Origin: Candidatus Magasanikiibacteriota bacterium
GTDB taxonomy: Bacteria; Patescibacteriota; Patescibacteriia; Magasanikbacterales; UBA922
Direction of reading: 5' to 3'
Length of the DNA stretch: 64,000 nt
Assembly: GCA_035389585.1 (NCBI GenBank)
Contig: DAOOSC010000001.1
Span: forward strand, 6,290-70,289
Shown here: positions 2,471-61,744 of the stretch, piece by piece
Numbering within the stretch: position 1 is the first letter of the stretch
How the letters are laid out: every line of letters starts with the position of its first letter
Position numbers and translations under genes: made by a program
Notes under the pieces: model-generated
Told to the model about the DNA's origin: nothing
Seen by the model: the letters and a program-made list of their open reading frames with translations, nothing else
Database searches by the model: none

Positions 2471-3925
2471 TTAGAAAGTAGGCATGCCAGATGGGGCGGA
2501 CGGATTCGAATTAGGTCTCGGGGTTGGTGGTGGAATATGGGCTGGTTCAGAGAATTGTGTTTCCAGATTTCGGAAACTGGATTTCTCGGCATCGAAGAAT
2601 AGGTTGACTTGGCCTGTCGGACCATTACGATGTTTCGCGACATGAATTTCAGCCAAGTTCAATTCGTCGGGTGGGATGTCTTCGACGCGGTAATTGCGAT
2701 CAGAGGCTTTGCGATAAATAAATAAAACTACATCGGCATCCTGTTCGATTGACCCTGAGTCACGCAAGTGAGCCAATTTCGGAATAGCTGGCTTGTTTTG
2801 TTCGACTGCACGTGATAACTGGGAGAGGGCGAGTACTGGTACATTGAGTTCGCGCGCAAGACCTTTCAGTCCGCGACTTATTTCGGCGACTTCTTGGACA
2901 CGGTTGTCGGTATAGCCACTGCCTGATGTGTCCATGAGTTGTAAATAGTCGATGATAATCATACCGAGGCCGTGTTCAGCTTGGAGACGGCGGGCTTTGG
3001 TACGGATTTGCATGACGGAGCTATTCGCGGAATCATCGATGAAGATCGGGGCTTCGGCGAGCATACCCATCGCATGTCCGATTCGAGGGAAATCGGTCGA
3101 ATCAGGTTTGTCGGATAAATTACCTGTACGCATTTTCCACAAATCTACCCCGGCCTCAGCACAGAGTAGGCGATCGACGAGCTGTTCTTTGCTCATTTCG
3201 AGAGAGAACATGCCGACAGGTACTTTCGCACGTACGGCCGCATTGCGAGCGATATCGAGGGCGAGAGAGGTTTTACCCACAGACGGGCGGGCGGCGAGAA
3301 TAATCAAATCAGATTTTTGGAGGCCGGCGAGGAGATTGTCTAATTTTTTGAAACCAGTTGGAATACCACGCAATTTGCCTTTTTCACGATGTAATTCATC
3401 AATACGTTCGAAAGCGTCATTCAACACCGCACGAATTGGTGTGAATGTCTGTTTCATGTGTTTTTGGGTGATACCGTAGAGGTGTTGCTGGGCTTGATCG
3501 AGAACTACATCTACATTGTCTGATTCGGAACGATAACCAAGTTCGGAAATTTCGCTGGCGGCACTGATGAGTCGGCGGAGTGTCGCTTTGCGACGTATGA
3601 TTTTCGCATATTGTACGACGTGCGCTGAAGTCGGCACGACATTGGATAGACCGACGAGGAAAGCGCGCCCACCGATCCTCTCGAGAATTTGTTTCTCTTC
3701 GAGGCGGTTGGCGATTGTGAGCACGTCGATCGGGTCGCTATTGGTGTAGGCTTCGACAATTATGGCAAATATTTCCGCATGAGCGCGTTTGTAGAAATCT
3801 TCTGCGTCCAAAATGTCGGCAATTTTCAGCATTGCTTCCCGATCAATCAAAACACAGCCGAGGAGAGACATTTCGGCTTCCAAATTGTGTGGTGGGATCT
3901 TTTCGAGTGAAGTAATATCTGGCAT
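2471..3925 (-). CDS. dnaB: Replicative DNA helicase DnaB
   Basis: The N-terminal DnaB domain (PPHNLEAE.SLLG) and a RecA-like domain with Walker A 'ARPSVGKTSLAL' and Walker B 'IIIDYLQLM'. A C-terminal Pro/Ser-rich tail of about 40 aa is unusual. Confidence 0.9.
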   Translation of the reverse strand: MPDITSLEKIPPHNLEAEMSLLGCVLIDREAMLKIADILDAEDFYKRAHAEIFAIIVEAYTNSDPIDVLTIANRLEEKQILERIGGRAFLVGLSNVVPTSAHVVQYAKIIRRKATLRRLISAASEISELGYRSESDNVDVVLDQAQQHLYGITQKHMKQTFTPIRAVLNDAFERIDELHREKGKLRGIPTGFKKLDNLLAGLQKSDLIILAARPSVGKTSLALDIARNAAVRAKVPVGMFSLEMSKEQLVDRLLCAEAGVDLWKMRTGNLSDKPDSTDFPRIGHAMGMLAEAPIFIDDSANSSVMQIRTKARRLQAEHGLGMIIIDYLQLMDTSGSGYTDNRVQEVAEISRGLKGLARELNVPVLALSQLSRAVEQNKPAIPKLAHLRDSGSIEQDADVVLFIYRKASDRNYRVEDIPPDELNLAEIHVAKHRNGPTGQVNLFFDAEKSSFRNLETQFSEPAHIPPPTPRPNSNPSAPSGMPTF

Positions 3926-4045: not shown

Positions 4046-4074
4046 CCTCCATAAAAAAGTATAATGCTCACATA
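4046..4074 (+). promoter_or_regulatory. Sigma70-like promoter (TTGAAA-N17-TATAAT)
   Basis: Consensus hexamers read directly, about 30 nt upstream of the 4105 ATG. Confidence 0.5.
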
Positions 4075-4104
4075 TCAAAAAGGCTTTGCCTAGTTTTTCT
4101 CATT

Positions 4105-5049
4105 ATGAACAATTTTCCGATAATTTGCGTTGACTGCGGAGCGGGGCTAAATCTCACCGAAACTTCATTTTCTTGTCCAGCTTGCGGGCGAGTGTATTTG
4201 ACAGTGGACGGCATCGCTATTATGCACCCGACCAATCTCGATGAATTGGCGCGCGAGGAGGCGGAGTATCATGATCATTCGCCAGAAGCCTCTGATGCTC
4301 ATCGACTTGATTATCCGCGTAATGAATATTTTCACGCGCGGATTGCAGAGGCTATATATGCGGGGGTGCCACAGGAGGAGATTTTGCTTGAAATTGGTGC
4401 GGGCGAAGGGTATGATGCACGTCGTCTCGTGAATAATTATCGTTTGGTCCTGACGGATGTGTCGCCAGGTGCTCTGAAACGCATCGGAGAAAATTTGCAA
4501 CATGAAAATATACTTGGATTAATTGCGGCGACTGGGGATCGTTTGCCGTTTGTGAATAATTCTTTTGCGGGTGTGTATATGGCGGCCACTTGGCATCATT
4601 TCACGGATGCGGAGTTGGCTTTTGGAGAATTTATGCGTGTTTTGCGTCCGGGCGGGCGACTCGTGATTGGTGTCGAGCCGAATGCTTTTTGGTTTCGACT
4701 GGTGAAAAAATTTCGCCGTTTACTCTGTCGTGCCACTCATGCTGATCCGGGTGAAGGTTCGCGTGCTGATGCAGAAATGGAGGGTTTTTCTCATTCGTAT
4801 TTACGTTCTCTGCGATCACGATCTGATGTTCGTAGTGTGAAAATTTATCCGATGTGGTTTCTGACAGGTTTTTGGCATTATGGCCTCGAGTTTATTCATC
4901 GCGTCCTGAAACGTAAAACTCGCGTGAACATTCCCAAATTTCTGGATTGGCCATTCCTCGCGGTTGATCAGATTTTATTCTGCATCCCGTTTTTTAATAG
5001 ATTGTGTTGGCATTGGGGAGTGGTGGTGGAGAAAAATATAAAATTATGA
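4105..5049 (+). CDS. Class I SAM-dependent methyltransferase with an N-terminal zinc-ribbon
   Basis: N-terminal CxxC...CxxC. 'LEIGAGEG' is SAM motif I, and '...LRPGGRLVIGVEPN' is a Methyltransf_11-like motif. Confidence 0.7.
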   Translation: MNNFPIICVDCGAGLNLTETSFSCPACGRVYLTVDGIAIMHPTNLDELAREEAEYHDHSPEASDAHRLDYPRNEYFHARIAEAIYAGVPQEEILLEIGAGEGYDARRLVNNYRLVLTDVSPGALKRIGENLQHENILGLIAATGDRLPFVNNSFAGVYMAATWHHFTDAELAFGEFMRVLRPGGRLVIGVEPNAFWFRLVKKFRRLLCRATHADPGEGSRADAEMEGFSHSYLRSLRSRSDVRSVKIYPMWFLTGFWHYGLEFIHRVLKRKTRVNIPKFLDWPFLAVDQILFCIPFFNRLCWHWGVVVEKNIKL

Positions 5050-30543: not shown

Positions 30544-33423
30544 ATGAATGAGTTGAACCAGGCACAAAAAACTGCGGTGGAATACACATCGGGTCCGCTT
30601 CTCATCGTAGCGGGAGCGGGGACAGGTAAGACCAAAGTAATTACTGAAAAAATTGCTTATATTATTGAATCCAGCCTAGCCAAGCCGGATGAGATTTTGG
30701 CGCTCGCGTTCAACGACAAAGCGGCTGGGGAAATTTCCGATCGAGTAGAAAATATTTTAGAGGGGGGATTTGTGGATTTGTGGGTGCACACTTTTCATGC
30801 TTTTTGTACACGCATTCTCGAGAAATATGGTCTCGAAATTGGTCTCCCGAATAAATTCAAAACTCTCACCGCGACAGATACTTGGATGCTCATGCGTGAG
30901 AATTTAGATCGATTCGATTTCGACTATTATCGTCCGCTCGGCAATCCGGCCAAGCATTTGCACGCTCTCCTCAAACATTTCTCCGCTTGCAAAGATGAGC
31001 TGATTACGCCGGAAGAATATTTAGCATATGCGGAATCAATCAAACTCGATACGGGGGATGTGAATGTCATAGAAAAAGAGCGAATAATAGAACTCGCCAA
31101 AGCTTATCAGACTTACAATCAAATTTTACTGGAGCATAATTATTTGGATTTTTCGGATTTAATTTTCTATACCGTAAAATTATTTGAAAAACGACCAAAT
31201 ATTCTCGCGGTACTTTGTCGCAAATTCAAATATGTCCTGGTGGACGAATTTCAGGATGTGAATTGGTCACAGTATAAACTGGCCAAAATGCTTACTCAAA
31301 GCGCTCAATTCACAGTTGTTGGTGATGACGATCAATCGATTTATGCTTTCCGCGGCGCTTCGGTGTCAAATATTTTGCGTTTCAAGACAGATTTTGCGAA
31401 TGCGCGCGAGGTCGTGCTCACAGAAAACTATCGCTCAGGGCAAGATATTCTCGATTTGGCTTATCGGGTGGTGAAAAACAATGATCCAGATCGATTGGAG
31501 TGTAGACTTGGGCTCACGAAAGAACTTAGGGCCGTGGGTGGCGAGAAGGGGGAAGTGAAATTGCGAGCTCATGACAATGGCCACAATGAAATTCGCGGGA
31601 TTGCCGAAAAAATTGCCGAATTACGTGCAAATCAGCCGGATTTATCTTGGAATGATTTTGCAGTGCTTGTGCGTAGCAATGCCCATATTGACGAAATTGC
31701 CAATACTTTCGATCGGCTTGGTGTTCCATATGAAGTCATGTCGGCGCGTGGTCTATATCGTCAACCAGTCGTACTCGATGCGATGTCGTATCTGCGAGCA
31801 GTCCAGAGTTATCACGAAAATGATGCCATTTACCGCCTCCTCAATTTGGCTATTTTTGGAATTTCCGATAATGATATTCGTCTTCTCACCACTCACGCGG
31901 ATCGTAAAAGTATTTCCTTGTTCGAAGCGGTGAAAATCGCGGCGACAATCGGAGTTTCGGTTGAGGGGATTTCGGGTACGGAGAGATTAATTGCGGAAAT
32001 AGATTTCGGCATGCAATCCGCCAGACGCGAGAAACCGACAATCATATTATTCAAATTTTTTGAAAGAAGCGGTTATCTCAAATGGCTGACCGAAGCGGAA
32101 GTGCGAGGTGATAGCGAGGCGATGCGTCAGATTTTCGAATTGCGCCAGTTTTTTAATTTTTTGGACAATTTCGAAAAACAAGCAGTAGTGCCGACACTTG
32201 ATTCATTCATGAAGTATTTCGCGTTGGTGCTCGATTCTGGAGATCTGGGGGAGAAGTATCGTCCGGAAGACACTCCCGATTCGGTCAATTTAATGACTGT
32301 ACACAATTCAAAGGGTTTGGAATTCAAATATGTTTTTGTACCAGCTTTGATCGAGGGTAAATTTCCATCGCGCAATCACGGTGGAGAAATCGATGTTCCT
32401 GTCGCCCTGATAAAAGAATCTCTACCAGAAGGAGATGGTCACTACGAAGAAGAACGGCGGCTTTTCTATGTAGCCACGACTCGTGCGAAGAGTGGTCTGT
32501 ATTTGTCTTATGCGGAATATTATGATGGTCGGAAGCAGAAATGCAAACCGAGTCGTTTCCTAAGCGAGGCTGGACTCGAAGCGGGAACTATGGTAGAAGA
32601 CGTTTCCAAATTTGATAAAATTGCCGATAGAAAACCACAGGCGATTGACAGCAAATTGCCATTGCCAGACAAATTTTCTATTTCACAAATTAAAGTCTAT
32701 TTGACTTGTCCTTATCAGTACAAATTAGACACGATTTTGCGTATTCAAAAAGCGCGTGGTGGGGCGATGAGTTTTGGTACCTCGATTCATAACACGCTTT
32801 ACAAATTCTATTCGCGGGTGATTGAATTAAACGAGGTTCGGGGTGGAGAAGTTATTGTCCCCAGTCTCGAAGAGTTTTTGAAATTTTATGAAGAATCGTG
32901 GATAGAAGATTGGTACGAAAGTCACGACCAGAGAGAGAAATATTTTCGTGAAGGTCGACGTATTCTGAAAAAATTCTATGAGGATAATACGAATCGGTGG
33001 ACAGTGCCGGTTGCGCTCGAAGTACCATTTTCCATGAAAATGGGTGGGCACGTCGTCCATGGTAGGATTGATCGGATTGATTGTTCGCCCGAGGGTAAAT
33101 TAGAGATTATCGATTATAAGACTGGTAAGACAAAGGAAAAAATAGAGAGTGATGATCGAGATCAGCTCCTCATCTATCAGCTCGCGGCCGAGAATTTACC
33201 TCAGTTATCGCGTCTCGGACCGGTAGAACATCTCACTTATCTGTATTTGACCGACAACACTCCACTGCGCTTCATTGGTAAAGAAAAAGATTTGGAGAAA
33301 TTTACGGAGAAGATTGTTTCGGCGATTGATCGGATTATGATGAGAGATTTCACACCTAGTCCGGACAAACGCAGTTGCGCATTTTGTGACTTTAAAAATA
33401 TTTGTGAATACCGTTTGGCTTAA
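30544..33423 (+). CDS. UvrD/PcrA-family ATP-dependent DNA helicase fused to a C-terminal PD-(D/E)XK nuclease domain with a Cys cluster (AddA/AddB-like)
   Basis: Walker A 'AGAGTGKT', UvrD motifs (VDEFQD, GDDDQSIYAFRGA), a C-terminal 'IDYKTGK' nuclease motif, and a terminal 'C..C.FC' cluster. Confidence 0.85.
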   Translation: MNELNQAQKTAVEYTSGPLLIVAGAGTGKTKVITEKIAYIIESSLAKPDEILALAFNDKAAGEISDRVENILEGGFVDLWVHTFHAFCTRILEKYGLEIGLPNKFKTLTATDTWMLMRENLDRFDFDYYRPLGNPAKHLHALLKHFSACKDELITPEEYLAYAESIKLDTGDVNVIEKERIIELAKAYQTYNQILLEHNYLDFSDLIFYTVKLFEKRPNILAVLCRKFKYVLVDEFQDVNWSQYKLAKMLTQSAQFTVVGDDDQSIYAFRGASVSNILRFKTDFANAREVVLTENYRSGQDILDLAYRVVKNNDPDRLECRLGLTKELRAVGGEKGEVKLRAHDNGHNEIRGIAEKIAELRANQPDLSWNDFAVLVRSNAHIDEIANTFDRLGVPYEVMSARGLYRQPVVLDAMSYLRAVQSYHENDAIYRLLNLAIFGISDNDIRLLTTHADRKSISLFEAVKIAATIGVSVEGISGTERLIAEIDFGMQSARREKPTIILFKFFERSGYLKWLTEAEVRGDSEAMRQIFELRQFFNFLDNFEKQAVVPTLDSFMKYFALVLDSGDLGEKYRPEDTPDSVNLMTVHNSKGLEFKYVFVPALIEGKFPSRNHGGEIDVPVALIKESLPEGDGHYEEERRLFYVATTRAKSGLYLSYAEYYDGRKQKCKPSRFLSEAGLEAGTMVEDVSKFDKIADRKPQAIDSKLPLPDKFSISQIKVYLTCPYQYKLDTILRIQKARGGAMSFGTSIHNTLYKFYSRVIELNEVRGGEVIVPSLEEFLKFYEESWIEDWYESHDQREKYFREGRRILKKFYEDNTNRWTVPVALEVPFSMKMGGHVVHGRIDRIDCSPEGKLEIIDYKTGKTKEKIESDDRDQLLIYQLAAENLPQLSRLGPVEHLTYLYLTDNTPLRFIGKEKDLEKFTEKIVSAIDRIMMRDFTPSPDKRSCAFCDFKNICEYRLA

Positions 33424-33429: not shown

Positions 33430-33741
33430 ATGACCATACCATCAACCTTATCATCGATTGGCGATACATTGAAAAATAAATTTGGTAATCAAGCGGGTGT
33501 TGCGAAAGGCGTGGAGGCCGCGCAGATCATCGAGGTTGCTCAGAAAATCATGGATAAAATTTTTTCTCCTGAATTGGCGGCGCTCATGAAACCGCTCTTC
33601 ATGAAAAACCGCACATTGACAATTTCGTGTAGCAGTTCCGCGGTGGCGCAGGAATTACGCCTTCATCAGAACGAAGTGGTAGAGCTCATGAACAAGGAGA
33701 TTGGTCGCAATGAAATTGACCGGGTGCGATATTTGTGTTAA
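33430..33741 (+). CDS. DUF721/DciA-like protein
   Basis: About 100 aa with a 'RTLTISCSSSAVAQELRL' core resembling the DUF721 (DciA) consensus. Confidence 0.5.
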   Translation: MTIPSTLSSIGDTLKNKFGNQAGVAKGVEAAQIIEVAQKIMDKIFSPELAALMKPLFMKNRTLTISCSSSAVAQELRLHQNEVVELMNKEIGRNEIDRVRYLC

Positions 33742-39976: not shown

Positions 39977-40447
39977 ATGGAAGATAGAACTCAATATATT
40001 TCTCCGGAAAAAGCCGATGAACTGAAAGCAGAAAAGAAAGATTTGAAAGAAAATAAAATTCCCGGATTGGCCAAAAGAATCGATGAGGCGAGACAAATGG
40101 GGGATCTCTCTGAAAATGCTGAGTATCATGCCGCGCGTGAAGACTTGGCTTGGACACAAAGTCGTGTGAAAGAGATCGATTCAATCCTCGAACGTAGTAC
40201 CGTGCTCGGCGTACGGAAGAGTACAGGTAATGTGACTCTCGGTTCGATCGTCACTGTGAAGGTGCTCGCTACGAAAAAGGAGCGTGAATACACTATTGTC
40301 GGTGCACAGGAGGCGGATCCAGCCGCAGGAAAAATTAGTAATGAATCACCACTTGGTAGTGCTTTTTTCGGTAAATCGAAGGGGGATGTGGTGAGTGTGA
40401 ATTTACCGGCGGGAGTGCAGGAGTATGAGATTGTGAGGGTGAAGTAG
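39977..40447 (+). CDS. greA: Transcription elongation factor GreA
   Basis: 'GDLSENAEYHAAREDLAW' is the coiled-coil acidic-tip motif. Length is 156 aa. Confidence 0.9.
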   Translation: MEDRTQYISPEKADELKAEKKDLKENKIPGLAKRIDEARQMGDLSENAEYHAAREDLAWTQSRVKEIDSILERSTVLGVRKSTGNVTLGSIVTVKVLATKKEREYTIVGAQEADPAAGKISNESPLGSAFFGKSKGDVVSVNLPAGVQEYEIVRVK

Positions 40448-40464
40448 TAAAGTGCTGGATTATT

Positions 40465-40499
40465 TTTTAATAAAAAAGGAACAGCTTCGTCTGTTCCTG
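40465..40499 (-). terminator. Rho-independent terminator for the minus-strand gene, possibly bidirectional
   Basis: Stem ggaacag / ctgttcc followed on the minus strand by TTTTTTATT. Confidence 0.65.
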
Positions 40500-40505
40500 T
40501 GGGGT

Positions 40506-40838
40506 CTATGGGCGCGTTCCATTTGCCGCCTTTTTTTGTATCTTGGCGTATCGATTGACCGTGAATTCATACATGATGAGGATTTGTCCGATGTGGATCA
40601 TTTGGGCTTCATGGACAGGGATACCTTTTTCATATAATTTTGGTGCGAGAGCCTTTGAGATTTTATTCCTTGATATCGCTCTTTGTCGCTCATCTGGTCG
40701 GTAGCCGTGCCGGACGATGAGACCGTCGATCTGGCAAAGGATCGGCCCTTGTTCAGTCTCACCTTCGTGAATGACGAAAGTGATACTGGGTTTTCCCCCC
40801 TTGTCAGTGGTCTCTTGAATTTGAACGTACATTTCCAT
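40506..40838 (-). CDS. Hypothetical protein of 110 aa
   Basis: A clean ORF that ends 6 nt before a strong terminator. No domain was recognised. Confidence 0.5.
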   Translation of the reverse strand: MEMYVQIQETTDKGGKPSITFVIHEGETEQGPILCQIDGLIVRHGYRPDERQRAISRNKISKALAPKLYEKGIPVHEAQMIHIGQILIMYEFTVNRYAKIQKKAANGTRP

Positions 40839-40937
40839 TTGAAAACCTCCGAATTTAGTTAATTACAATATAGCGGAAAATTGCACATTTGTCAACGTTG
40901 GCATATACTATATAAGCTAAAGCTTAATTAAAAAAAT

Positions 40938-41333
40938 ATGGAGACATATAACTGGTACTCGAATCTGATCAAACCGAATTGGGCGCCGCCATCTTGGCTG
41001 TTTGGCCCGGTTTGGACATTTTTGTATATTTTGATAGCTGTTTCTTTCGGAAAAGTATTTTTGATGGTTTGGAACAGGCAAATCACCTTCATGGTCGCTC
41101 TACCGTTTATCCTCAATTTGATTTTTAATTTTGTTTTTACGCCGATCCAATTCGGTTTGAAAAATAATTTTCTCGCGGCGGCCGATATTTTACTTGTTTT
41201 CGGAACACTCATTTGGGCGATGGTGAGTATTTATCCGCACGCGCGTTGGATCGTTTATATCCAAATTCCATATTTACTTTGGGTGTCTTTTGCGACAGTT
41301 TTGCAACTGACGATCACTTTTCTAAATCGATAG
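40938..41333 (+). CDS. TspO/MBR family tryptophan-rich sensory protein
   Basis: 'WYSNLIKPNWAPPSWLFGPVWTFLY' matches the TspO signature. The protein has five TM helices and is 131 aa long. Confidence 0.8.
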   Translation: METYNWYSNLIKPNWAPPSWLFGPVWTFLYILIAVSFGKVFLMVWNRQITFMVALPFILNLIFNFVFTPIQFGLKNNFLAAADILLVFGTLIWAMVSIYPHARWIVYIQIPYLLWVSFATVLQLTITFLNR

Positions 41334-46214: not shown

Positions 46215-47270
46215 ATGAAATTCAATCGAATTGGTAGAAAAATTAACAACACTGCTCAGTCTATTGTTCGGTCTATGAATCAGGACGGTGGCGTGGTGAA
46301 ACGTGATTATGCTGAACGGGTGAGAAAAAATAATCCAATGTTTGTTTCTCGCCCCCAAAAAAATCTCGGTCTGTATGTCAAACTATTTTTGGCCGTTGGT
46401 TTATTTTTGGCGACGGTTATAATTATGTTGGCGCATCCGTTCTTTCGGATCAAGCAGATCGTCGTATCAGGCACGAATCGGGTGGACAATGCCGAAGTTG
46501 TGAAGACCCTCGAAGGGATATTAGATGGACGTTGTCTGGTTATTTTTTCCAATCGGAATTATTTTTTGACGGACGTGGTCGAGATCAGAGAAATTTTACG
46601 CTCACGTTTTCCGATTGCGGAAATTGTCGTCAAAAAAACTTTTCCAGGTAAGGTGGATGTGGAATTGAAGGAAAAAATTACGCGGATTATTTTTGATAAC
46701 GGGAAAAGATATGCGTTTCTGAATGAATCGGGGCAGGTACTCGAGGTGATCCGGAGTGTGGGGGAGGACGAGTGGAAGGAAGTTCCTGGTGGAGTCGATG
46801 GGCCAGCGGTCTCGTCCACTGTGAGTGCTATTATCTCTACCAGTTCGATACTCCTAAATGAGCATTTTTCGAAATATCACGTGCCAAGTGTTGGTGATAT
46901 CAGAAAACTAGCTGGGGACTATCCAATATTGTACGACGCCAGAACCAATACTGTAAATTTCGTTTCGTCGTCCCCAACGTTGGAGAAGGGGGAAACAGTC
47001 GTGGAGGATTACTTGGTGAAAAGAGTCATCGAGTGGTATGGTGGATTGATAAAAGTAATCGGAGAAAATAAAATTGATTATTTTGTAATTCAAAATGATG
47101 TGGGTTTTGGTGAAGTGCGATTACGAGATGGAAGTTATATCAAATTAAATTTAATTGTGGATCGTCCGAGCGCAATTGAGGCGATTGATTTACTTTTGCA
47201 TGAAAAAATTAAAGGAGGGAAGTTCGAGTATCTAGATGTACGTTATCCAGGACGAGTATATTGGAAATGA
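46215..47270 (+). CDS. ftsQ: FtsQ/DivIB-like cell division protein (POTRA domain)
   Basis: A single TM segment, then a POTRA-like 'IKQIVVSGTNRV...' block. It lies downstream of murF. Confidence 0.65.
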   Translation: MKFNRIGRKINNTAQSIVRSMNQDGGVVKRDYAERVRKNNPMFVSRPQKNLGLYVKLFLAVGLFLATVIIMLAHPFFRIKQIVVSGTNRVDNAEVVKTLEGILDGRCLVIFSNRNYFLTDVVEIREILRSRFPIAEIVVKKTFPGKVDVELKEKITRIIFDNGKRYAFLNESGQVLEVIRSVGEDEWKEVPGGVDGPAVSSTVSAIISTSSILLNEHFSKYHVPSVGDIRKLAGDYPILYDARTNTVNFVSSSPTLEKGETVVEDYLVKRVIEWYGGLIKVIGENKIDYFVIQNDVGFGEVRLRDGSYIKLNLIVDRPSAIEAIDLLLHEKIKGGKFEYLDVRYPGRVYWK

Positions 47271-47521
47271 GTTTAGAGGTAGGGAGGTGGGAGGATATCC
47301 AGTCCAGTGAAGCCTTGGCTGGATTGAGGTATATAAGAGGCGTCGTTTAATGAAACTTATGCGACGCCACAGAATATGGCTTCATAAACCCAAGGTATAG
47401 AGTGTCGTCTTTTTGTTTAAATTTTCAGGACGAAGAAAATAGGATGGTTGTTATGAGGCTTCCCTTGCTTAGGTATTTGTTTTATGAGCCACTTATTGTG
47501 CTGGTATTCACCTGTTTAATG

Positions 47522-47655
47522 TCAAAGTTCAAATTACAAATTTCAAATAAATGCCAAAACTAAAAGTTCAAATACCCGCAAAGATTGTAAATGGATATTT
47601 GATATTTTGATTTTGGCATTTGACATTGATTTGTTATTTGTAATTTGAACTTTGA
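47522..47655. repeat. Long imperfect palindrome with 20-bp perfect outer arms and 11-bp inner arms
   Basis: tcaaagttcaaattacaaat at 47522-47541 pairs with atttgtaatttgaactttga at 47636-47655. Nested inside, aaatgccaaaa at 47549-47559 pairs with ttttggcattt at 47611-47621. Confidence 0.6.
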
Positions 47656-47771
47656 GGTTAGTCAAAACGCACTCGACCTAACCTTTCTCTATTCTCCATC
47701 TCACCCACCGCTCTCTTCTCTACCTAATAAAATATTGTGCGACACCTAAATAAAAGAGGCGACTATTTATT

Positions 47772-49019
47772 TTAGTTTGGAAGGTAAGCGAGAGGATTCA
47801 CTGGGATGCCATTTTTGCGACATTCGAAGTGGAGGTGAGGGCCGGTGACGAATGGTCCAGCTCCAACTGTGCCCGGTGTTCCTCCAGAGGCGCCGATTAT
47901 ATCCCCTATCGTCACAAATTGATCTTCTTTCACATAAATACTGCTCAAATGTCCATAGACAGTTGACAATCCCCCACTATGCACGATCATGACATAACTA
48001 TAACATGAAGCGAGTGAACAGGTTTTCGCGCGGGCGATATATCCAGAACCAGCGGCTTTGACTGGGGTGCCTTGTCCAGCGCGGACATCAATGCCATTGT
48101 GCTCAAAAACGTTTCTATAGGGGTAGTCTGGGTCGTGGAAAAATGACGTGACAACACGGCTCGGTACCGGCCAATTAAATACACCACCGCTTTCCATTTC
48201 GGCATTAATTTTTTTCTGTGATTCGAGTTTTTTTCGTACTTCTTGTTCAATGGATTCAATTTCACCTTCGATTGCCTGATACTGGCTTTTTTGATTAGCG
48301 AGGAGGGTTTTGTATTTGAGTTCGGAAGATTGAGTTTGGGCGAGAAGATTTCCTTTGAGAAAACCTTGTTCTTCGAGTTTCTTTTTTTTCAATGCAAGTT
48401 CTTCGCTGGTTTTTTTGTAGGCAGTTTCTCGCTCTGTGGCAATGTTTTTCTTTTCGTCCAATTCTGATTTAGAAATTTTAATACCTCTTACATTGGTGCC
48501 GAGATTTCTTTCAATATTTTCTAGGTATTGGATACGATTGTAGAAATCAGAGAAATTGTCGTAAGTGGCGGCAATTTGAATATAATTTCGGTTTTCTTGA
48601 AGATAGATTGTTCGGATCAGTTCGGCGAGCATTTTTTGTTGTTTCGCGATGCTAGCTTCTTTGTCCTGGATTGACAGATCGAGAGCGGAAATTTCGAGCT
48701 GAATTGATGAGAGTTGAGTCTCGGTAGCTTCGATATCAAACTCGACCTGACGTGTTTGGTTGTCTAAAATTGAAATTTGATTAGAGAGTGAGACAGCTTC
48801 TTTACGTTTAGCATCGATTTTTTGTTTGAATTCTTCAATGCTTTTTTCGAGTTGTTTGATCTTGTCTCGTTTTTCGGTAATTTTCTGGTTCAAGGTGTCA
48901 ATTTCAGCAGAGTTCCCCCCTACACCGCTATTCGTTAGCGCAACTGATTTGGAGGGAAAAGAAAAGACTGATCCGAAAATGGCCAGGAAAAATATAGTAA
49001 TTAAATACCGGTATTTCAT
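47772..49019 (-). CDS. Peptidase M23 protein with an N-terminal coiled-coil (EnvC-like architecture but catalytically intact)
   Basis: A signal/TM segment, about 250 aa of heptad-rich coiled coil, and C-terminal M23 with 'HNGIDV' and 'PHLHFE'. Confidence 0.8.
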   Translation of the reverse strand: MKYRYLITIFFLAIFGSVFSFPSKSVALTNSGVGGNSAEIDTLNQKITEKRDKIKQLEKSIEEFKQKIDAKRKEAVSLSNQISILDNQTRQVEFDIEATETQLSSIQLEISALDLSIQDKEASIAKQQKMLAELIRTIYLQENRNYIQIAATYDNFSDFYNRIQYLENIERNLGTNVRGIKISKSELDEKKNIATERETAYKKTSEELALKKKKLEEQGFLKGNLLAQTQSSELKYKTLLANQKSQYQAIEGEIESIEQEVRKKLESQKKINAEMESGGVFNWPVPSRVVTSFFHDPDYPYRNVFEHNGIDVRAGQGTPVKAAGSGYIARAKTCSLASCYSYVMIVHSGGLSTVYGHLSSIYVKEDQFVTIGDIIGASGGTPGTVGAGPFVTGPHLHFECRKNGIPVNPLAYLPN

Positions 49020-51962: not shown

Positions 51963-54593
51963 ATGAGTACAAATAACTTTACCAAAAAAACCCAAGAGGC
52001 GCTCGAAAATGCGGCGCAACTCGCCCACAGTCACCACCTCCCCCAAGTGGAGCCGCCCCACATTTTCGCTGCAATCGTAAATGACGATGGCGGTGTAGTC
52101 TCGGCCGTGCTCCAAAAATTGAATATCGATATCAATAGTGTGCGTAAATTCGCCATGTCTCTCGTCACTGGCATGCCTCGTGCCGACGGTCCGATTCCGA
52201 TGCTGAATATGCACCAAATCATGCTCGGGCAAAATGCGATGAACATTCTGAATCTGGCAGGTGTCGAAGCTCAAAAAATGGGAGATGAATATATGAGTGT
52301 AGAGCACCTACTGCTCGCATTTTTAGTTAATAAAAATCCCGTCAGTGAGTATCTCATAAAACTCGGTGCCTCATATGACGAGACTTTGAAAGTCCTCGCC
52401 ACGGTCCGCGGTACCCAAAAAGTTGATTCACCTGAACCAGAAAGTAAATACCAAGCGCTAAAAAAGTACGGAAAAAATCTGACGGACCTCGCAAAAAAAG
52501 AAAAACTCGATCCCGTCATCGGTCGTGACGAAGAAATTCGTCGTGTCATGCAAGTCCTCTCGCGCCGTACAAAAAACAACCCAGTCCTTATCGGCGAACC
52601 AGGTGTCGGTAAGACGGCGATTGCCGAAGGTTTGGCACAACGAATCGTCAATGGCGATGTTCCGGAAAGTATTCGCGATAAAGAAGTCATTTCACTCGAC
52701 GTCGGTGCACTCGTCGCTGGGACGAAATTTCGTGGCGAGTTTGAAGATCGTTTCAAAGCGGTTTTGAAAGAAGTGATTGATTCTGCGGGTAAAATTATTC
52801 TCTTCATTGACGAATTACACTCCATCGTCGGCGCTGGCGGATCCGAAGGCGCAATTGATGCGAGCAATATGTTGAAACCGGCGCTCGCCCGCGGTGAATT
52901 ACATACTATCGGGGCGACCACACTGAAAGAATACCAGAAATATATCGAAAAAGACGCCGCTTTCGAAAGACGTTTTCAACCCGTCCTCGTGAAAGAACCA
53001 TCTACCGAAGACACGGTTGCGATTTTACGTGGTATCAAAGAAAAATATGAAATTCATCACGGTGTCCGAATCACTGATGCCGCGATTGTCGCCGCCGCTA
53101 ATTTGTCCAGTCGATATATCACCGACCGTTTTTTGCCGGACAAAGCGATTGATTTGATTGATGAAGCGACTTCGGCTTTGCGCATGCAAATTGATTCGAT
53201 GCCAGAGGACCTCGATATCATGAAACGCAAAATGATGAAAATTGAAATCGAATTGCGTGCTCTAAAAAAAGAAACTGATAAAGATGCCCAGGATCGGGCG
53301 ACGAAACTGAAAGAAGAATTGGCAAATTTGAAAGAAAAAAGTTCTGGACTCGAAATTCAATGGCGCAATCAAAAAGAAATTATTACCAGTATTCGTGAAC
53401 ACAAAAAAGAAATCGATAAATTGCGTCAACAAGCCGATATCGAAGAACGTCGTGGTGATTTACAAAAAGTCGCCGAGATTCGTTATGGTAAAATTCCGAC
53501 CATGGAAGAAGCCATCCGCGGAGACGAAAATCATCTCGCCGAATTACGCAAAGAGCGGGCGATTTTGAAAGAAGAGATTACCGAGACTGACATCGCAGCC
53601 GTAGTGGCGCGCTGGACCGGCATTCCCCTATCCAAAATGCTCCAAGATGAAGTGAAGAAATTAGCGTACATGGAAAGTGATTTGAAAAAACGCGTCATCG
53701 GCCAAGAAGAAGCCATTACCGCCATTTCAAATGCGATTCGTCGTTCACGGGCTGGTATATCCGAAGAAAAACGCCCAATCGGCTCGTTTATCTTCATGGG
53801 GCCGACTGGTGTCGGTAAGACTGAACTCGCGAAAGCCTTGGCGGAATTTCTTTTCAATGATGAAAATTCTCTCGTTCGAGTAGACATGAGTGAATACATG
53901 GAGAAACATGCCGCGAGCAAAATGATTGGTTCCCCTCCTGGCTATGTCGGCTTCGACGAAGGTGGCCAGCTCACCGAGATTATTCGCCGTCGTCCATATT
54001 CGGTAATTCTATTTGATGAAATCGAAAAAGCGCATCCTGATATTTTCAATATGATGCTCCAAATTTTGGATGACGGTCATCTGACTGATGCAAAGGGTCG
54101 CAAAGTAAATTTCAAAAACACTGTCATAATCATGACGAGTAATATCGGTTCGGAATACATGATGGAACTAGACAAACGTGGCGACCTCGGCTTTGGTGAT
54201 AGTGCGAAATCAGAAAAGAAGGAAGATAAAATGAAAACCCGTATCATGGACGCACTACGTGAACGCTTTCGTCCAGAATTTTTGAATCGCATCGATGAAA
54301 TTATCACATTCCACCCATTGAATGAAAAACAAATTCGCACCATTGTCGATTTACAAATCGCTCATGTCGCGAAACGTCTCGAAGTACGCCACATCACTCT
54401 CCGCATTTCAGAAAAGGCAAAGGATTGGCTCGCGAAAAAGGGCTATGATCCGAACCTGGGGGCACGCCCGTTGAAACGTGTCATTCAGACCGCGGTGATG
54501 GATAAGCTGGCTATGGCCATAATTGAAGAAAAAATAATCGATGGTGCTGTTGTAAAAGTGGAGATAGTGAAAGGTGAAATTGAAATAAAATAG
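51963..54593 (+). CDS. clpB: Chaperone ClpB (Hsp100, two AAA+ modules with a middle coiled-coil)
   Basis: The Clp_N repeats, two Walker A motifs ('GEPGVGKT' and 'GPTGVGKT'), and a long M-domain coiled coil. Confidence 0.9.
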
Positions 54594-55292
54594 AAAACAG
54601 TTTAATTAAAAAAGATGGTAATCCCCTCTTTTTTAATTATCCACACAGACTCTTTGACGATGTCTGTATTTGGGTGTATCATTAATTCCAATCACGACGA
54701 CGGGTGTCGCCCAGCAATCAGAGGTCTCACCTCGAAGCTGAAATAAGCCTGTTTCGTGGTTTGTTCCTGTTTCCGGTAGAGGTAGAATAAGCGGAGCGAA
54801 TAGTCCGAGGCCTGAGCGCTCAGCTCCTCGGCGCAATGTCCGCGAAAAACCTCTCGATACCAATGAATGGTGTCGGTATGTGGGTCAGTAGTGCGTGCCC
54901 CTGCATACGCCAATGTTCCGGAGTGGCTGATGATGGCACTAAAATCAGCGTTTGGTCAATGACCAGACCAAAGGAAGGTGGCTTTTGGGTCATGTACAAG
55001 ACACAGTTAGACTGGTGAGTACACAGAAGTCGCGGTGCTGTTCGTGGTTCTATTTCATGGGGGGGGGAAAGTCATGGGGTACTTTTCCCAACGCTTGGCT
55101 AGTTAGCTCATTGTTTAACAACCCCAAGATTGTCCATATCGATGGAAAGGCACTTGTTTCAGGAGTTTTAGTGCTGGAATCCGAGATTGTCGATGTGGAT
55201 AGTCACTCTCTCTAAGGACCGGGTAGTAATACCGGTCCTGTTTTTTTATTAGAACTGTCAATAGCGATGGATTTGTGTTATACTATACTTCT
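54594..55292 (+). other. GC-richer region of about 700 bp lacking a convincing CDS. It contains a DnaA-box-like TTATCCACA at 54644-54652 and a G9 homopolymer at 55059-55067, and ends in a strong + strand terminator.
   Basis: Only short overlapping ORFs in multiple frames, a composition unlike the neighbours, and a terminator at 55217-55250. Confidence 0.4.
55217..55250 (+). terminator. Rho-independent terminator
   Basis: Stem ggaccgg / ccggtcc with a 9-nt loop, followed by TGTTTTTTT. Confidence 0.7.
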
Positions 55293-57596: not shown

Positions 57597-58391
57597 ATGT
57601 CTCTAGCCTTCGCCGCCATTACTCCTCACCCACCGATTTGTCTGCCCAGTATCGGTGGAAACGACCTAGTAAAAGTTCAAGCGACTCGGACCGCTCTCGC
57701 CCGTCTCGAGCAGGATCTCTACATTGAGAAGCCTGATATTATTGTGGTAATTTCACCACATGGAGGGATATTTCGTGATGTTTTTACTTTGAATGGTTAT
57801 ACTGAATTTACCGCAGATTTTACGGAATTTGGCGACATGGTGACGACCCACAAATGGGCGGGGGCGACAAATTTTGCTTCAATTTTTTATAATCATAATA
57901 GTGCTAAAGAAGTACCCATGCAACTTATTGCCGATCCAAAACTTGATCATGGGGCCGCTATTCCACTCATGTTTCTGACAGATCATTTGCAGGCAGTGAA
58001 GATCTTGCCGGTTGGGTATAGTGAATTGTCACCACTTGCCCATCTCGCTTTTGGGGAAGCCCTGAAAGATATGATCATGGAGAGTGACGCACGAGTGGCT
58101 GTGATTGCCTCTGGCGATTTATCTCATGCGCTCACGAGCGATTCACCGGCTGGTTTCAATGCGGCTGGAGCGGAATTTGACCAGCAGTTAATTAAAATGC
58201 TTGAGACGAGAAATACGGTTGGAATTGCACAGATGAACCAAGAACTGGTGAAAAATGCGGCGGAGTGTGGCTATCGTTCCATTTTGATACTTTTGGGCGT
58301 TTTGAAGAATATGAATTATTCGTTTGAGAATTATGCTTACGAGGCGCCATTTGGTGTGGGGTATTTGACAGGAAATTTTGTTTTAAATTGA
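57597..58391 (+). CDS. Class III extradiol dioxygenase family protein (LigB/YgiD-like)
   Basis: The 'HPPI', 'SPHG' and 'SGDLSHAL' blocks align with the metal-binding His residues of the LigB family. Confidence 0.6.
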   Translation: MSLAFAAITPHPPICLPSIGGNDLVKVQATRTALARLEQDLYIEKPDIIVVISPHGGIFRDVFTLNGYTEFTADFTEFGDMVTTHKWAGATNFASIFYNHNSAKEVPMQLIADPKLDHGAAIPLMFLTDHLQAVKILPVGYSELSPLAHLAFGEALKDMIMESDARVAVIASGDLSHALTSDSPAGFNAAGAEFDQQLIKMLETRNTVGIAQMNQELVKNAAECGYRSILILLGVLKNMNYSFENYAYEAPFGVGYLTGNFVLN

Positions 58392-60313
58392 AAACCATTG
58401 TGATCGCAGAAGTCACCCTGCTTCGGCGCATGGTGCGGCGTCTTGATTTTTTTGATTACGCTGTGCCGGCAGAAATGGAGTCGGGAATTCAGGTGGGAGT
58501 AGTAGTGAAAGTGCCTTTTCGCAAAAGCATTGAGTTTGGTATTATTAAAGGAGTTTCCACTGAACCTGCCCGTCCAAATTTGAAACCAATTGGAGAAATA
58601 CTTGGTCCTCAACCGATTTTTGAGAAGGATCAATTAGAGGTTATGATTGGTTTGGCTCATTTCTATGGAGTCTCTTTATCAAACATTTTGAACCTCGCTC
58701 TCCCTACCCTCGGGATCAGGCGTCTCACAGCGCTCACGCGTCGCCAGAAAGTGGTGGTAGAAAAAAATAATTTAGAAAAAGAATTCGAAGCTCCTTTGGA
58801 ATATTTTTTATATAAAAATGAAAAAGAGCGATTGAATTATTTTGTTGACAAGTGCGGATCATGTCGAAAGGCTATTATTCTCCTGCCACAAGTCGTTGGA
58901 GTTAACCCCCTCGTCGAGGAATTGACTGAAAAACTATCACACCACACCATCATCCCCTATCACTCCGATTTGACCGAAAAACAGCGGGCGGAAAACTATT
59001 TTTCATTTCTCGAAAATCCCAAAGCTGTGCTCGTGGGCACGAGGATTGCGGCATTCGCGCCACTGATTGGAGCGGATCGTATTTTCATCGATCGCGAGCA
59101 GGACGATGATCACAAAAGTTGGGACGCGGCACCACGATTTGACGCGCGTTTCGTGATGCGAATTTTCGCTTTGCGCAGTCATGTTCCACTCTCATTCATG
59201 AGTTTTTCCCCTTCAGCGGATTCATATTTCCGTGTTCACAAAGGATTTGTCTCAGGTTCAATCGAACCGTCGCCGATCAACCGGGCTACTTGTGTTGATA
59301 TTTCATCAGAAAGTCGTTTTGGAAATTTGGATCTACTTTCGACCAACACTTTCACCCGCATGCAAAAATGTTTGGAAAAAAACACCGATGTTTTGGTTTT
59401 TGTTAATCAAAAAGGTGTAGCGAGTGGTATGTATTGTCGTAATTGTGGCCACGATCTGATTTGTCCGAAATGTAAAATAAATTATGCGGTCGGGCGTGAG
59501 AACAACCTCAACTACTTGGCATGCCGACGCTGTCTCGGTCATGAGAAAATGCCGAGCACTTGCCCGAACTGTCATTCTGACAAATTAAGTACACGCGGTG
59601 CGGGGGTAGATAAAATTGGTGAAGCAGTAATTAATTGGGTGGAGAAAAAACAATTGAAAAACAAAGTGGAAATTATTTCGGCGGATGATGGTGTGAACAA
59701 AAATAAAAAGAACGAAAAGAGTTTTGATGATTCAGTGGCGCGAATTTTTGTTGGCACAGAAGCAATGTTATCACGCCCAATTTGGGGCAAAGCTGGTCTC
59801 GCGGTAATTTCCAGTTTTGATCGAATGCGTAATTCCCCAGACTATCTCGCCGATGAGAGGGCTTGGCAATTGATTACTCATGCTCATTATCTACTGCCCG
59901 AGACAGGCGAGGTCATCATTGAAGCGCGTGAACCAAAACACTATATTTTGCGCTCTCTCATCGAGCCGCATCGTTTCTACCGCTTGAACCTCAACATGCG
60001 CCAAACCGCTACTTTCCCTCCCTATACTCTCCTCGTCAAATATATGGTCGGAAACAGCGACCCACTGAAGGCCGAGAAATCTGCCAAACAAGCCGTGGTT
60101 GAGCTGAAATTGGCATTGACAAAAAACAATGTTTCTGCTAGTATTTCAGGTCCGACCGAGTCTATACCGAAGGTTCGAAATGGCCAGTATTATTACGTAA
60201 TTTTAGCCAAATTTAAGCCAGACATCGCTTTTGATGCGGTGGCCGCGATTCATCGTGCTCTCGACCCCGAGATCAAAATTGACCCAAATCCGATGAGTCT
60301 GTATAATCCTTAG
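58388..60313 (+). CDS. priA: Primosomal protein N' (PriA) homolog with degenerate ATPase motifs
   Basis: The N-terminal 3'-DNA-binding domain ('AEVTL...YAVP'), the characteristic Cys-rich region (CRNC...CPKC...CRRC...CPNC), and a helicase-core alignment. 'YKNEKERLNY' replaces Walker A and 'DREQDD' replaces DEEH. The ORF-track start codon is TTG. Confidence 0.7.
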   Translation: MKTIVIAEVTLLRRMVRRLDFFDYAVPAEMESGIQVGVVVKVPFRKSIEFGIIKGVSTEPARPNLKPIGEILGPQPIFEKDQLEVMIGLAHFYGVSLSNILNLALPTLGIRRLTALTRRQKVVVEKNNLEKEFEAPLEYFLYKNEKERLNYFVDKCGSCRKAIILLPQVVGVNPLVEELTEKLSHHTIIPYHSDLTEKQRAENYFSFLENPKAVLVGTRIAAFAPLIGADRIFIDREQDDDHKSWDAAPRFDARFVMRIFALRSHVPLSFMSFSPSADSYFRVHKGFVSGSIEPSPINRATCVDISSESRFGNLDLLSTNTFTRMQKCLEKNTDVLVFVNQKGVASGMYCRNCGHDLICPKCKINYAVGRENNLNYLACRRCLGHEKMPSTCPNCHSDKLSTRGAGVDKIGEAVINWVEKKQLKNKVEIISADDGVNKNKKNEKSFDDSVARIFVGTEAMLSRPIWGKAGLAVISSFDRMRNSPDYLADERAWQLITHAHYLLPETGEVIIEAREPKHYILRSLIEPHRFYRLNLNMRQTATFPPYTLLVKYMVGNSDPLKAEKSAKQAVVELKLALTKNNVSASISGPTESIPKVRNGQYYYVILAKFKPDIAFDAVAAIHRALDPEIKIDPNPMSLYNP

Positions 60314-60320
60314 TATAAAT

Positions 60321-60812
60321 ATGTTAAAAATAGTCACTCTCCCCGATCCTCGATTGCGCACCAAATCAGTGCCTCTCGACCCGGAGAAATTAAAAACCGA
60401 CGAATACAAAAAAATCATTGCCGAAATGACTGATTTGATGTACAAGTCAGATGGTGTGGGCATTGCTGCGCCACAAATTGGTATCAACAAAAGATTTTGC
60501 ATCATTGGTAAATTAGGCATTGAAAAAGATAAAAAATCTGGAGTGAAGGTCGCTGATCTCGTCCTCATCAATCCGACCTGGACCAAAATTTCCCGAAAGA
60601 AAAATTCTGAAGTAGAAGGTTGCTTATCGGTGCCACACACTTTCGGTACAGTTAGCCGATTGTCGGAAATCCGCGTCCACGCGTTCGATTTGGATGGCCG
60701 ACCGCTTGAATTTATCGCTCATGGATATTTCGCGCGCGTCATCCAACACGAAGTTGACCATTTGGACGGAATTTTATTTATTGATCGGGCGACGGGTGTG
60801 TATAATGATTAA
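60321..60812 (+). CDS. def: Peptide deformylase
   Basis: The 'GIAAPQIG', 'EGCLSVP' and 'HEVDHLDG' motifs. Confidence 0.9.
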   Translation: MLKIVTLPDPRLRTKSVPLDPEKLKTDEYKKIIAEMTDLMYKSDGVGIAAPQIGINKRFCIIGKLGIEKDKKSGVKVADLVLINPTWTKISRKKNSEVEGCLSVPHTFGTVSRLSEIRVHAFDLDGRPLEFIAHGYFARVIQHEVDHLDGILFIDRATGVYND

Positions 60813-60814: not shown

Positions 60815-61744
60815 ATGAACAAAACCCCCATAATATTTTTTGGTTCACATAATTTCGCTGCGCGGATTTTGCAAACTCTGATTGATTCAGATAATTTTGA
60901 AATAAAACTCGTCATCACCCAGCCTGACCGACCAGTCGGACGAAAAAAAATACTCGAATCAACTCCCGTGAAAGTTTTGGCAAATGCTAATTTTCTGCAA
61001 GTGATCGATCCCGAGAGTCTGCGTAAAACAAAAATTGAATTGCCTGATGCTGAAGTCGCGATTTGTGCTCAATACGGTCTCATCATTCCTCAATATGTCC
61101 TCGATGCGCCACAGCGCGGGATTATAAATGTCCACACTTCCCTATTACCGAAATATCGTGGCGCCTCACCTATTCAGAGCGCTCTCATGAACGGTGAAAC
61201 GCAAACTGGCGTCACAATCATGCTCATGAACGCCGGACTCGATACAGGGCCGATTTTGAAACAAAAGACCGTTGCAATTGAACCGAACGACACATACCTC
61301 ACACTCGAGAAGAAATTAGTTGAAGCAGGATCGAAATTAATTATCCCGACGACTTTGGAATACCTCGCGGACACAATCAAGCCAATCCCTCAAAGTGACA
61401 CTGAAATGACAACATGTCGTGAACTGACCCGCGATGATGGGCGAATTAATTGGCAGACCATGAGGGCTACCCAAATATTCAATCTCTGGCGCGGTCTAAC
61501 ACCATGGCCGGGTGTTTGGACAACTTGGCAGGGAAAGCGCCTGAAACTGCTTGAAATTGCGCCTACAACACATGCAGGTATAATTGCTGGACAGATCCTC
61601 ATCGAAAATGACCGAGTTTTCGTAGGTGCGATGAACGAATCCTGTATTGAACTCCAAACAATTCAACTCGAAGGAAAAAATGCCACTTCTGCTCGTGATT
61701 TTATTCGCGGTGCAAGAGATTTTAATGGCTCTAAACTCAAATAA
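60815..61744 (+). CDS. fmt: Methionyl-tRNA formyltransferase
   Basis: The 'INVHTSLLPKYRGASPIQ' formyltransferase motif and the def-fmt gene order. Confidence 0.9.
   Translation: MNKTPIIFFGSHNFAARILQTLIDSDNFEIKLVITQPDRPVGRKKILESTPVKVLANANFLQVIDPESLRKTKIELPDAEVAICAQYGLIIPQYVLDAPQRGIINVHTSLLPKYRGASPIQSALMNGETQTGVTIMLMNAGLDTGPILKQKTVAIEPNDTYLTLEKKLVEAGSKLIIPTTLEYLADTIKPIPQSDTEMTTCRELTRDDGRINWQTMRATQIFNLWRGLTPWPGVWTTWQGKRLKLLEIAPTTHAGIIAGQILIENDRVFVGAMNESCIELQTIQLEGKNATSARDFIRGARDFNGSKLK

Follow-up and report, generated by a model that had tools for sequence, protein, structure and literature searches.

A PriA homolog without a recognizable helicase motor in a Candidatus Magasanikiibacteriota bacterium and its probable role as an ATP-independent scaffold for replication restart

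What task is left for the replication restart protein PriA when the motifs that power its helicase have disappeared? This question is raised by a gene in a 64,000-nucleotide (64-kb) stretch of DNA from a Candidatus Magasanikiibacteriota bacterium (contig DAOOSC010000001.1, positions 6,290 to 70,289; hereafter, the window), where positions 58400..60313 of the forward strand encode a PriA-like pseudohelicase of 637 amino acids (aa) beginning at ATG 58400. The answer that we favor, with a probability of roughly 0.7, is that this protein is a PriA pseudohelicase which would serve as an ATP-independent scaffold for fork recognition and for the recruitment of the replicative helicase DnaB, a reading drawn from patterns of sequence conservation and from analogy with characterized PriA proteins.

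The gene occupies a single uninterrupted open reading frame (ORF; 58388..60313, forward strand, as are all features within it), which comprises 641 aa when counted from TTG 58388, and the residues of this protein (the query) are numbered here in the 641-aa frame. Its homologs start at the position matching Met5 of the query, and ATG 58400 is therefore the likelier start. The 637-aa product is identical to a protein deposited at NCBI as a "hypothetical protein" of a Candidatus Magasanikbacteria bacterium (HOX60435.1; PLV72_00315), and ten more of the window's proteins match entries from that metagenome-assembled genome exactly (HOX60383–HOX60437), which places the organism in the Patescibacteria. 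The same gene is also present in a second, independent assembly (Logan SRR32414321), which matches the window with 99.4% DNA identity over 5.8 kb and carries identical motif remnants.

In the original prediction, made from the letters of the window, this protein was described as a PriA homolog that had lost Walker A and the DExH box. Both losses are borne out by an alignment of the query with E. coli PriA (NC_000913.3) and with canonical and degenerate homologs, from which all of the motif readings given here are taken, and the alignment revealed further losses in motifs Q, III, V, and VI. At Walker A, the GVTGSGKTE of E. coli aligns with FLYKNEKER of the query, and the remnant YKNEKERL (residues 142–149; 58811..58834) occupies E. 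coli positions G224–T231. This former P-loop segment retains its strand-loop-helix geometry in a predicted structure (strand 137–141, helix 145–157), but it is one residue shorter than in E. coli and its glycine-rich loop is gone; among the degenerate relatives described below, the consensus at this site is Y-x-x-x-x-E-[HKR], with Y142, found in 111 of 141 sequences, replacing the first glycine of the P-loop. The DEEH of motif II reads DREQ in the query (residues 235–238; 59090..59101), and in the family the aspartate is kept in 77% of the sequences and the second glutamate in 93%, whereas the catalytic first glutamate (E. coli E321) is unconserved, the commonest residue being an aspartate at 30%. 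The glutamine of the Q motif and the LxxEQxxA element upstream of motif I are absent from the query, and the remaining motifs are altered as follows: VPEI to LPQV in motif Ia, GSATP to MSFSP in motif III (SAT is now SFS), NRRG to NQKG in motif IV, and GTQMLAKG to GTEAMLSR in motif V, where Q540, K544, and G545 are lost. The motif V remnant VGTEAMLSR spans residues 456–464 (59753..59779), and its glycine and threonine are kept in 94 and 99% of the family, respectively. In motif VI, TQVAGRAGR of E. coli is represented by THAHYLLPE (residues 497–505; 59876..59902), so that Q580, G583, R584, G586, and R587 are all replaced, and the query has a 3-residue deletion that is common to about 95% of the family.

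A P-loop hidden by a shifted register or a frameshift would have undone this observation. A scan of all six frames of positions 58200–60500 found no instance of [AG]xxxxGK[ST], GxGK[ST], or DE[AEIV][HD], and the observation stands because no P-loop occurs in any frame and the independent assembly is identical at the motifs. As judged from the alignment, every motif that binds or hydrolyses ATP is lost from the query, and none of helicase motifs I, II, III, V, and VI has a form competent for these activities.

The survey of related sequences indicates that this condition extends well beyond one organism. An exhaustive HMMER search of 1.84 billion representative proteins returned 12,653 proteins at E ≤ 1e-3, and most of the best 150 of these are about 585–660 aa in length and can be aligned over their full extent with the query, to which they are 25–34% identical. 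When relatives are clustered at 50% identity, about 140 clusters of proteins of 600–640 aa share the same motif losses; hence, the degeneration is not a private feature of this bacterium and represents the state of a divergent protein family. In a joint alignment, the P-loop, the arginines of motif VI, and the motif V KG are missing from the full-length sequences among these, with the exception of four (viz. P0176, P0187, P0196, and P0197). The family was reached only by the exhaustive HMMER search. A word-indexed protein search with the query recovered a single close relative, followed by canonical PriAs with identities of ≤27%; in the same index a family profile gave these same canonical PriAs and a profile of lobe 1 alone gave two fragments. 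A search of genome contigs with the single protein yielded only a Lachnospiraceae PriA at 24% identity, and a scan of metagenome contigs one distant PriA and one 24-residue fragment.

A neighbor-joining tree groups the 141 degenerate sequences in a single clade that contains no canonical PriA, in a sample that was chosen by similarity to the query and by a method that is sensitive to long branches. The mean distance within the family is 1.57, compared with 1.15 among canonical PriAs from several phyla. Named records in the family are from Candidatus Magasanikbacteria (the metagenome-assembled genome of the window) and a "Patescibacteria group bacterium" (HLD31930.1, a member of one cluster), and the family's taxonomic placement rests on these two names together with the gene order described below.

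A column-by-column comparison of 50 canonical PriAs with 141 members of the degenerate family indicates which parts of the protein have been given up and which retained. Positions that are 96–100% conserved in the canonical set but have been substituted or vary within the family (most frequent residue ≤61%) are, in E. coli numbering, Q203, G224, T226–T231, E321, A357, T358, Q540, K544, G545, Q580, G583, R584, G586, and R587. Kept in both sets are P253 and E254 of motif Ia, G302-T303-R304 and P310 of motif Ib, D320, E322, K328, R334, N426, R427, and G429 (motif IV), G538, T539, D560, E572, Q597, and T598, and R625, P631, P632, D726, and P729 of the C-terminal domain (CTD), and positions that contact DNA or zinc are conserved at 80–99% in the family. 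The pattern in the alignment is thus that positions touching the nucleotide are gone and those touching DNA or zinc are kept. Among the latter is the equivalent of the aromatic-rich loop, HKSWDAAPRFDARFV (residues 241–255; 59108..59152), in which K243 (E. coli K328) and R250 (E. coli R334) are conserved in 99 and 96% of the degenerate family; the corresponding loop of E. coli PriA crosslinks to the fork junction (PMC5175346). Seven further residues (viz. Y142, Q38, R45, H242, D246, W466, and P484) are conserved in the degenerate family only.

Some variation within the family was observed around the former active site. In 18 of the 141 members, histidine is present at all four of the query positions 148, 238, 242, and 244 (Y...EH / D[YF]EH / HKHWDQ), and these residues could bind a metal or a partner. 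In a further subgroup, the same positions read K, G or A, H or Y, and S (DDEGN / YKSWDM), and the query has R, Q, H, and S.

The identity of the protein as a PriA is supported by its domains and its predicted fold. The original prediction recognized the 3'-DNA-binding domain (3'BD), the cysteine-rich region (CRR) with four CxxC pairs, and the CTD of PriA, and all three can be documented. The 3'BD (residues 21–106; 58448..58705) matches Pfam PF17764 (PriA_3primeBD) above its cut-off with an E value of 1.7e-14, is also matched by the isolated E. coli 3'BD (2d7e), and contains Y24, G37, P43, G51, and K66, the counterparts of E. coli Y18, G29, P35, G44, and K61, which are kept in both the canonical and the degenerate sets. 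In the CRR (residues 350–395; 59435..59572), the pairs C350/C353, C359/C362, C379/C382, and C392/C395 are all intact, and the eight zinc-ligand cysteines are conserved at 91–97% in the degenerate family and at 100% in canonical PriA. The CTD (residues 545–641; 60020..60310) gives a weak match to Pfam PriA_C (E value 1.2e-3), is modeled with high confidence, and, with the residues just before it, retains R538, P544, P545, D632, and P635, which are kept in both sets. There is no winged-helix domain: some 100 residues of E. coli PriA find no partner in the alignment, alignments of hidden Markov models to PDB sequences pass over Klebsiella residues 119–252, and a short linker of about 30 residues (residues 107–136; 58706..58795), which replaces this domain and the Q motif, connects the 3'BD with strand β1 in lobe 1.

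At the level of curated models, the best NCBIfam matches of the query are all to PriA models and all under the cut-off (TIGR00595, 206.1 bits against 230.35), the PRK05580 equivalog models score it far below their own cut-offs, and Pfam gives a sub-threshold signal for Helicase_C. Matches to PDB sequences are exclusively to PriA (4nl4, E value 4.7e-37 with the single sequence and 9e-94 with the family profile). An AlphaFold2 model built from a 61-sequence family alignment has a mean predicted local distance difference test score (pLDDT) of 91.6 and a predicted template modeling (TM) score of 0.90, with low confidence confined to linker 107–136 (pLDDT 53–69) and an acidic/lysine-rich loop around residues 437–439. 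When the model was compared with the PDB by Foldseek, fork-bound E. coli PriA (8fak_H) ranked first (E value 8e-42, TM score 0.77), the remaining PriA entries had TM scores of 0.60–0.71 (at least 0.70 for 6dcr, 6dgd, and 4nl4), and the next fold, Mfd, was below 0.4. As in PriA, the model consists of two RecA-like superfamily 2 lobes, the second of which carries the CRR as an insertion, and ends in the CTD. E. coli and Klebsiella PriA (4NL4, 6DGD, and 8FAK) thus share with the query the order 3'BD, lobe 1, lobe 2 with a two-zinc CRR, and CTD, but they differ from it in sequence (about 21% identity) and in possessing the winged-helix domain and the ATP-binding motifs. By its fold, domain order, zinc site, and locus, the gene encodes a full-length PriA, albeit one that lacks the family's catalytic motifs and falls short of its score thresholds.

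The locus provides further information in this regard. Directly upstream of the PriA-like gene is a LigB/Memo-family gene (57597..58391, forward strand; Pfam LigB, E value 1e-39), and downstream of it, on the same strand, are def for peptide deformylase (60321..60812; Pfam PF01327, E value 2e-48), which is its direct neighbor, and fmt for methionyl-tRNA formyltransferase (60815..61744; Pfam Formyl_trans_N and Formyl_trans_C). The order priA-def-fmt is a classic gene order. The arrangement LigB/Memo-priA-like-def is also found in the second assembly, and the longer order ClpB, penicillin-binding protein, LigB/Memo, priA-like gene, def, fmt, and in some cases Wzy surrounds relatives that are 27–33% identical to the query in three other sequences (L004, L005 [GCA_023246655.1], and L006). 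In these three and in a contig of Candidatus Torokbacteria (L008), fmt lies downstream of PriA. The Torokbacteria contig encodes a short PriA with intact motifs in a similar LigB/Memo-AMMECR1-priA-fmt neighborhood, and this resemblance to the gene order around the degenerate relatives suggests orthology of the degenerate protein with priA and loss of the motor inside the candidate phyla radiation (CPR). The Torokbacteria protein (PIZ56789.1, the P0176 of our alignment; 665 aa) is from the same superphylum as the query and is likewise compact, the winged-helix domain being already missing from intact short CPR PriAs; unlike the query, it has an intact GVTGSGKTE-type P-loop, DEEH, SAT, GTQM..KG, and QVxGRxGR, and it scores for Pfam DEAD, ResIII, and Helicase_C. 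Upstream of this intact PriA are LigB/Memo, AMMECR1, and radical-SAM genes, the AmmeMemoRadiSam trio; in the window only the Memo/LigB member adjoins.

The family is fast-evolving and yet under purifying selection. In a comparison of 290 codons with a 65%-identical partial relative (L007), the ratio of nonsynonymous to synonymous substitution rates (dN/dS, Nei-Gojobori method) is 0.14, with dS near saturation, and the stretch DYLADERAWQLITHAHYLL, which spans the former motif VI, is identical in the two proteins.

Other components expected of a restart system are encoded in the window, as the original prediction had also stated. DnaB (2471..3925, reverse strand) is intact, with Pfam DnaB and DnaB_C matches (E value 1.8e-99) and Walker A at residue 212, and is presumably the client that the restart protein serves. 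The DciA-like gene (33430..33741, forward strand) encodes a 103-aa DciA that exceeds the Pfam PF05258 cut-off (E value 9.4e-13); we take DciA to be the ancestral type of DnaB loading factor, and the organism is expected to use it rather than DnaC. Neither PriB nor DnaT was seen within the 64-kb window, and no second PriA was found in it. Seven bases before dciA ends a gene (30544–33423, forward strand) for a 959-aa fusion of a UvrD/Rep-type superfamily 1 helicase with a C-terminal PD-(D/E)XK (AddB/Cas4-like) nuclease, and this helicase is a candidate source of the unwinding that a dead PriA cannot supply.

Studies on E. coli PriA suggest how a protein of this kind could work. The priA300 mutant protein (K230R) has no ATPase, helicase, or translocase activity, and yet the mutant is near wild type and sustains the PriA-PriB pathway, the motor being needed when restart takes the PriA-PriC pathway and when the lagging arm of the fork is duplex (PMC5778457; PMC13594977). 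In the cryo-electron microscopy structure of fork-bound PriA, all three arms of the fork are gripped, the nascent leading 3' end is held in the 3'BD pocket, and the CRR, lobe 2, and the CTD together form a pore that encloses 8–9 nt of lagging-strand single-stranded DNA (ssDNA) (PMC10175261). For the query protein, the ATPase loss, DNA binding, and contact with DnaB or DciA are all predictions from sequence; binding to ssDNA and forks is predicted from the conserved 3'BD, motifs Ia, Ib, and IV, the lysine and arginine of the aromatic loop, the CRR, and the CTD. In the mechanism that we propose, the PriA-like protein would recognize an abandoned fork or D-loop and capture the nascent leading-strand 3' end in its 3'BD, and the ssDNA of the lagging-strand template would be laid across motifs Ia, Ib, and IV, the motif V threonine, and the lysine and arginine of the aromatic loop before passing through the CRR/lobe 2/CTD pore as in E. 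coli PriA. Without ATP-driven unwinding, the bound protein would act as a landing platform for DnaB, either directly or with DciA, forks with a duplex lagging arm would need another helicase or nuclease, and the rebuilt cleft (Y142, E147, H242, W245, and D246) may have acquired a structural or docking role.

The original prediction proposed that an ATPase-dead PriA would act as a scaffold rather than as a motor. The sequence evidence supports this proposal, in that the nucleotide-contact motifs are lost and the DNA-contact motifs, zinc region, 3'BD, and CTD appear to be under purifying selection; as a concept, however, an ATPase-dead PriA has a precedent in Deinococcus radiodurans. The PriA of this species, in which the Walker A and B boxes are off consensus, is inactive as an ATPase and as a helicase but still binds ssDNA, forks, and, by direct contact, DnaB, and the genome lacks priB and dnaT (Lopper, Boone & Morrow 2015; PMC4504706). 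For the query we propose the role already put forward for the Deinococcus protein, in which forks are recognized and DnaB is recruited independently of ATP, and in all that can be read from sequence the query matches this pseudohelicase class. The two proteins differ in that the PriA of Deinococcus-Thermus keeps a P-loop with lysine changed to arginine in GKT (PMC4504706), whereas in the query family the glycine-rich loop has been erased and motifs Q, III, V, and VI and the winged-helix domain are missing as well. The origin also appears to differ: the best scores of the query are with PRK05580-type models, and intact PriAs are present in sister CPR lineages. That the query family probably arose independently of the Deinococcus lineage is argued from the published description of the latter. 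A 2017 review names Deinococcus-Thermus as the sole exception to the conservation of PriA helicase activity (PMC5778457), and our full-text literature search on PriA in Patescibacteria, CPR, Saccharibacteria, and Parcubacteria found no description of this family.

Comparable losses were observed in other groups. Actinobacterial PriAs of the PRK14873 group (P0048 and P0053) also lack GxGKT and DEEH (WDDGD or WDDAD) as well as the arginines of motif VI, and, as in the query, the 3'BD and the cysteine-rich region are kept; unlike the query, they belong to a high-GC lineage with a precomputed Pfam match (PF27106). The query scores ≤122 bits against PRK14873 models and 250 bits against PRK05580 models, and because the former scores are far below the latter, the two degenerations look independent. 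In two further, unplaced proteins, the high-GC P0017 (722 aa), which keeps the winged-helix domain and reads WGDEEARV / DDEQ at its motifs, and P0050 (594 aa), Walker A and DEEH are missing too, as are the arginines of motif VI. Since motifs I, II, and VI are missing from all four of these proteins, loss of the PriA motor appears, on sequence grounds, to be recurrent and to have arisen several times.

Of the alternative explanations, the one that survives best, although we consider it unlikely, is that the protein is derived from PriA but has left replication restart, acting as a structure-specific DNA-binding regulator or repair factor with its cleft repurposed for a ligand, metal, or partner. 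The clustering of family-specific residues at the old active site (Y142, E147, H242, W245, and D246) and the four co-occurring histidines would fit such a change, as would the poor retention of R428 and H455, the PriB-docking and CRR-UP residues of E. coli (PMC13594977). The histidine cluster, however, is confined to part of the family and does not occur in the query, the 3'-end-binding domain, zinc region, and ssDNA-contact motifs are exactly what has been conserved, the gene neighborhood resembles that of an intact CPR PriA, and no other PriA is seen in the window.

It is far less probable that the protein remains an NTPase or translocase with a non-canonical site, formed by the cluster Y-x4-E-[HKR] / D-x-E-H / H-K-x-W-D or by a second, weak nucleotide site. 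The persistence of D235 and E237 in 77 and 93% of the family, the retained strand-loop-helix, the alignment of a lysine of the query with K230, and the possible second nucleotide site of E. coli PriA (PMC5778457) could be cited for it. Against these, the segment has lost its glycine-rich loop and is shortened by one residue, the residue at the K230 position varies among family members (H, K, or R at about 20–28% each), the catalytic glutamate, the Q-motif glutamine, and SAT have disappeared together with both arginines of motif VI, and in E. coli the K230R change alone kills the enzyme (PMC5778457).

The weakest alternative, that the gene is a decaying pseudogene or that its motifs were destroyed by a frameshift, assembly error, or annotation artifact, might draw on the "hypothetical protein" label, the TIGR00595 score of 206 against 230 bits, and a within-family distance that exceeds the canonical one (1.57 against 1.15), but we reject it as having almost no chance of being correct because of the dN/dS of 0.14 and the identity of the motif VI stretch with L007, together with the lack of a P-loop in six frames, the same motif sequences in an independent assembly, a full-length ORF that aligns end to end with about 140 clusters, a mean pLDDT of 91.6, and dozens of positions conserved at 90–100%, including the family-specific Y142, Q38, R45, H242, D246, and W466.

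Several points nevertheless weigh against the ATP-independent scaffold. The scaffold role of the query protein is deduced rather than observed, and only 64 kb of the genome is covered, so an intact PriA may be encoded elsewhere. The E. coli winged-helix domain, which is missing from the query, aids binding to the parental duplex (PMC10175261). The query is also more eroded than its family, with E254 of motif Ia changed to Q168, R427 of motif IV to Q341, and Q597/T598 to E512/A513 (E. coli residues first), and because of these deviations DNA binding along the helicase core may be weakened in its lineage. In addition, between window positions 58400–60313 and positions 3328–5241 of the second assembly three codons differ, all of them nonsynonymously (S184P, G312E, and V407I) and none synonymously, as compared with 34 mismatches in the flanking 3.9 kb; these numbers are too small to interpret and add no support for constraint.

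The family represents a second lineage with predicted loss of the PriA motor, one that is more radical than Deinococcus, larger in diversity (about 140 clusters), and still under selection, and, if the scaffold reading is correct, it supports the view based on priA300 that the core work of PriA is fork recognition and helicase recruitment and not unwinding. A broader and speculative extension, which we regard as doubtful, is that much of the CPR may restart replication by means of a minimal ATP-independent PriA whose cleft has been rebuilt (Y142, E147, H242, K243, W245, and D246) to dock DnaB and/or DciA. Were this so, these bacteria would possess a three-protein PriA-DciA-DnaB module and constitute a natural experiment on the purpose of the PriA motor, and, taken with the actinobacterial and Deinococcus lineages, motor loss would be recurrent in bacteria without PriB, PriC, and DnaC. 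The proteins of this family, which are compact (about 620 aa, with no winged-helix domain) and predicted to be ATPase-dead, are suited to structural work on PriA-DnaB-DciA contacts. Surveys of gene content could also wrongly score CPR genomes as PriA-less, because these orthologs score too low for TIGR00595 and carry the database label "hypothetical protein".

A few other features of the window were observed. Scans of the entire 64 kb for Rfam families and tRNAs were empty. Between the convergent genes 46215–47270 (forward strand) and 47772–49019 (reverse strand) is an AT-rich imperfect hairpin of about 145 nt (47517–47660) with arms of 58 nt that are 78% complementary and an RNA minimum free energy of −59 kcal/mol (z = −8.4 relative to shuffled sequences); on both strands it has only sub-threshold Rfam matches to plant and animal miRNA precursors, and it may represent a terminator acting in both directions or else a small palindromic element. 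Two long intergenic gaps, 54593–55275 (about 680 bp) and 40447–40938 (about 490 bp), which are unusual in a tightly packed genome, contain no ORF, tRNA, or credible Rfam match. The GC skew is strongly positive (0.13–0.36) from position 1 to about 48 kb and is then near zero or slightly negative, and this change coincides with a switch, at about 47.7–51.3 kb, from genes that are almost all on the forward strand to genes of mixed orientation.

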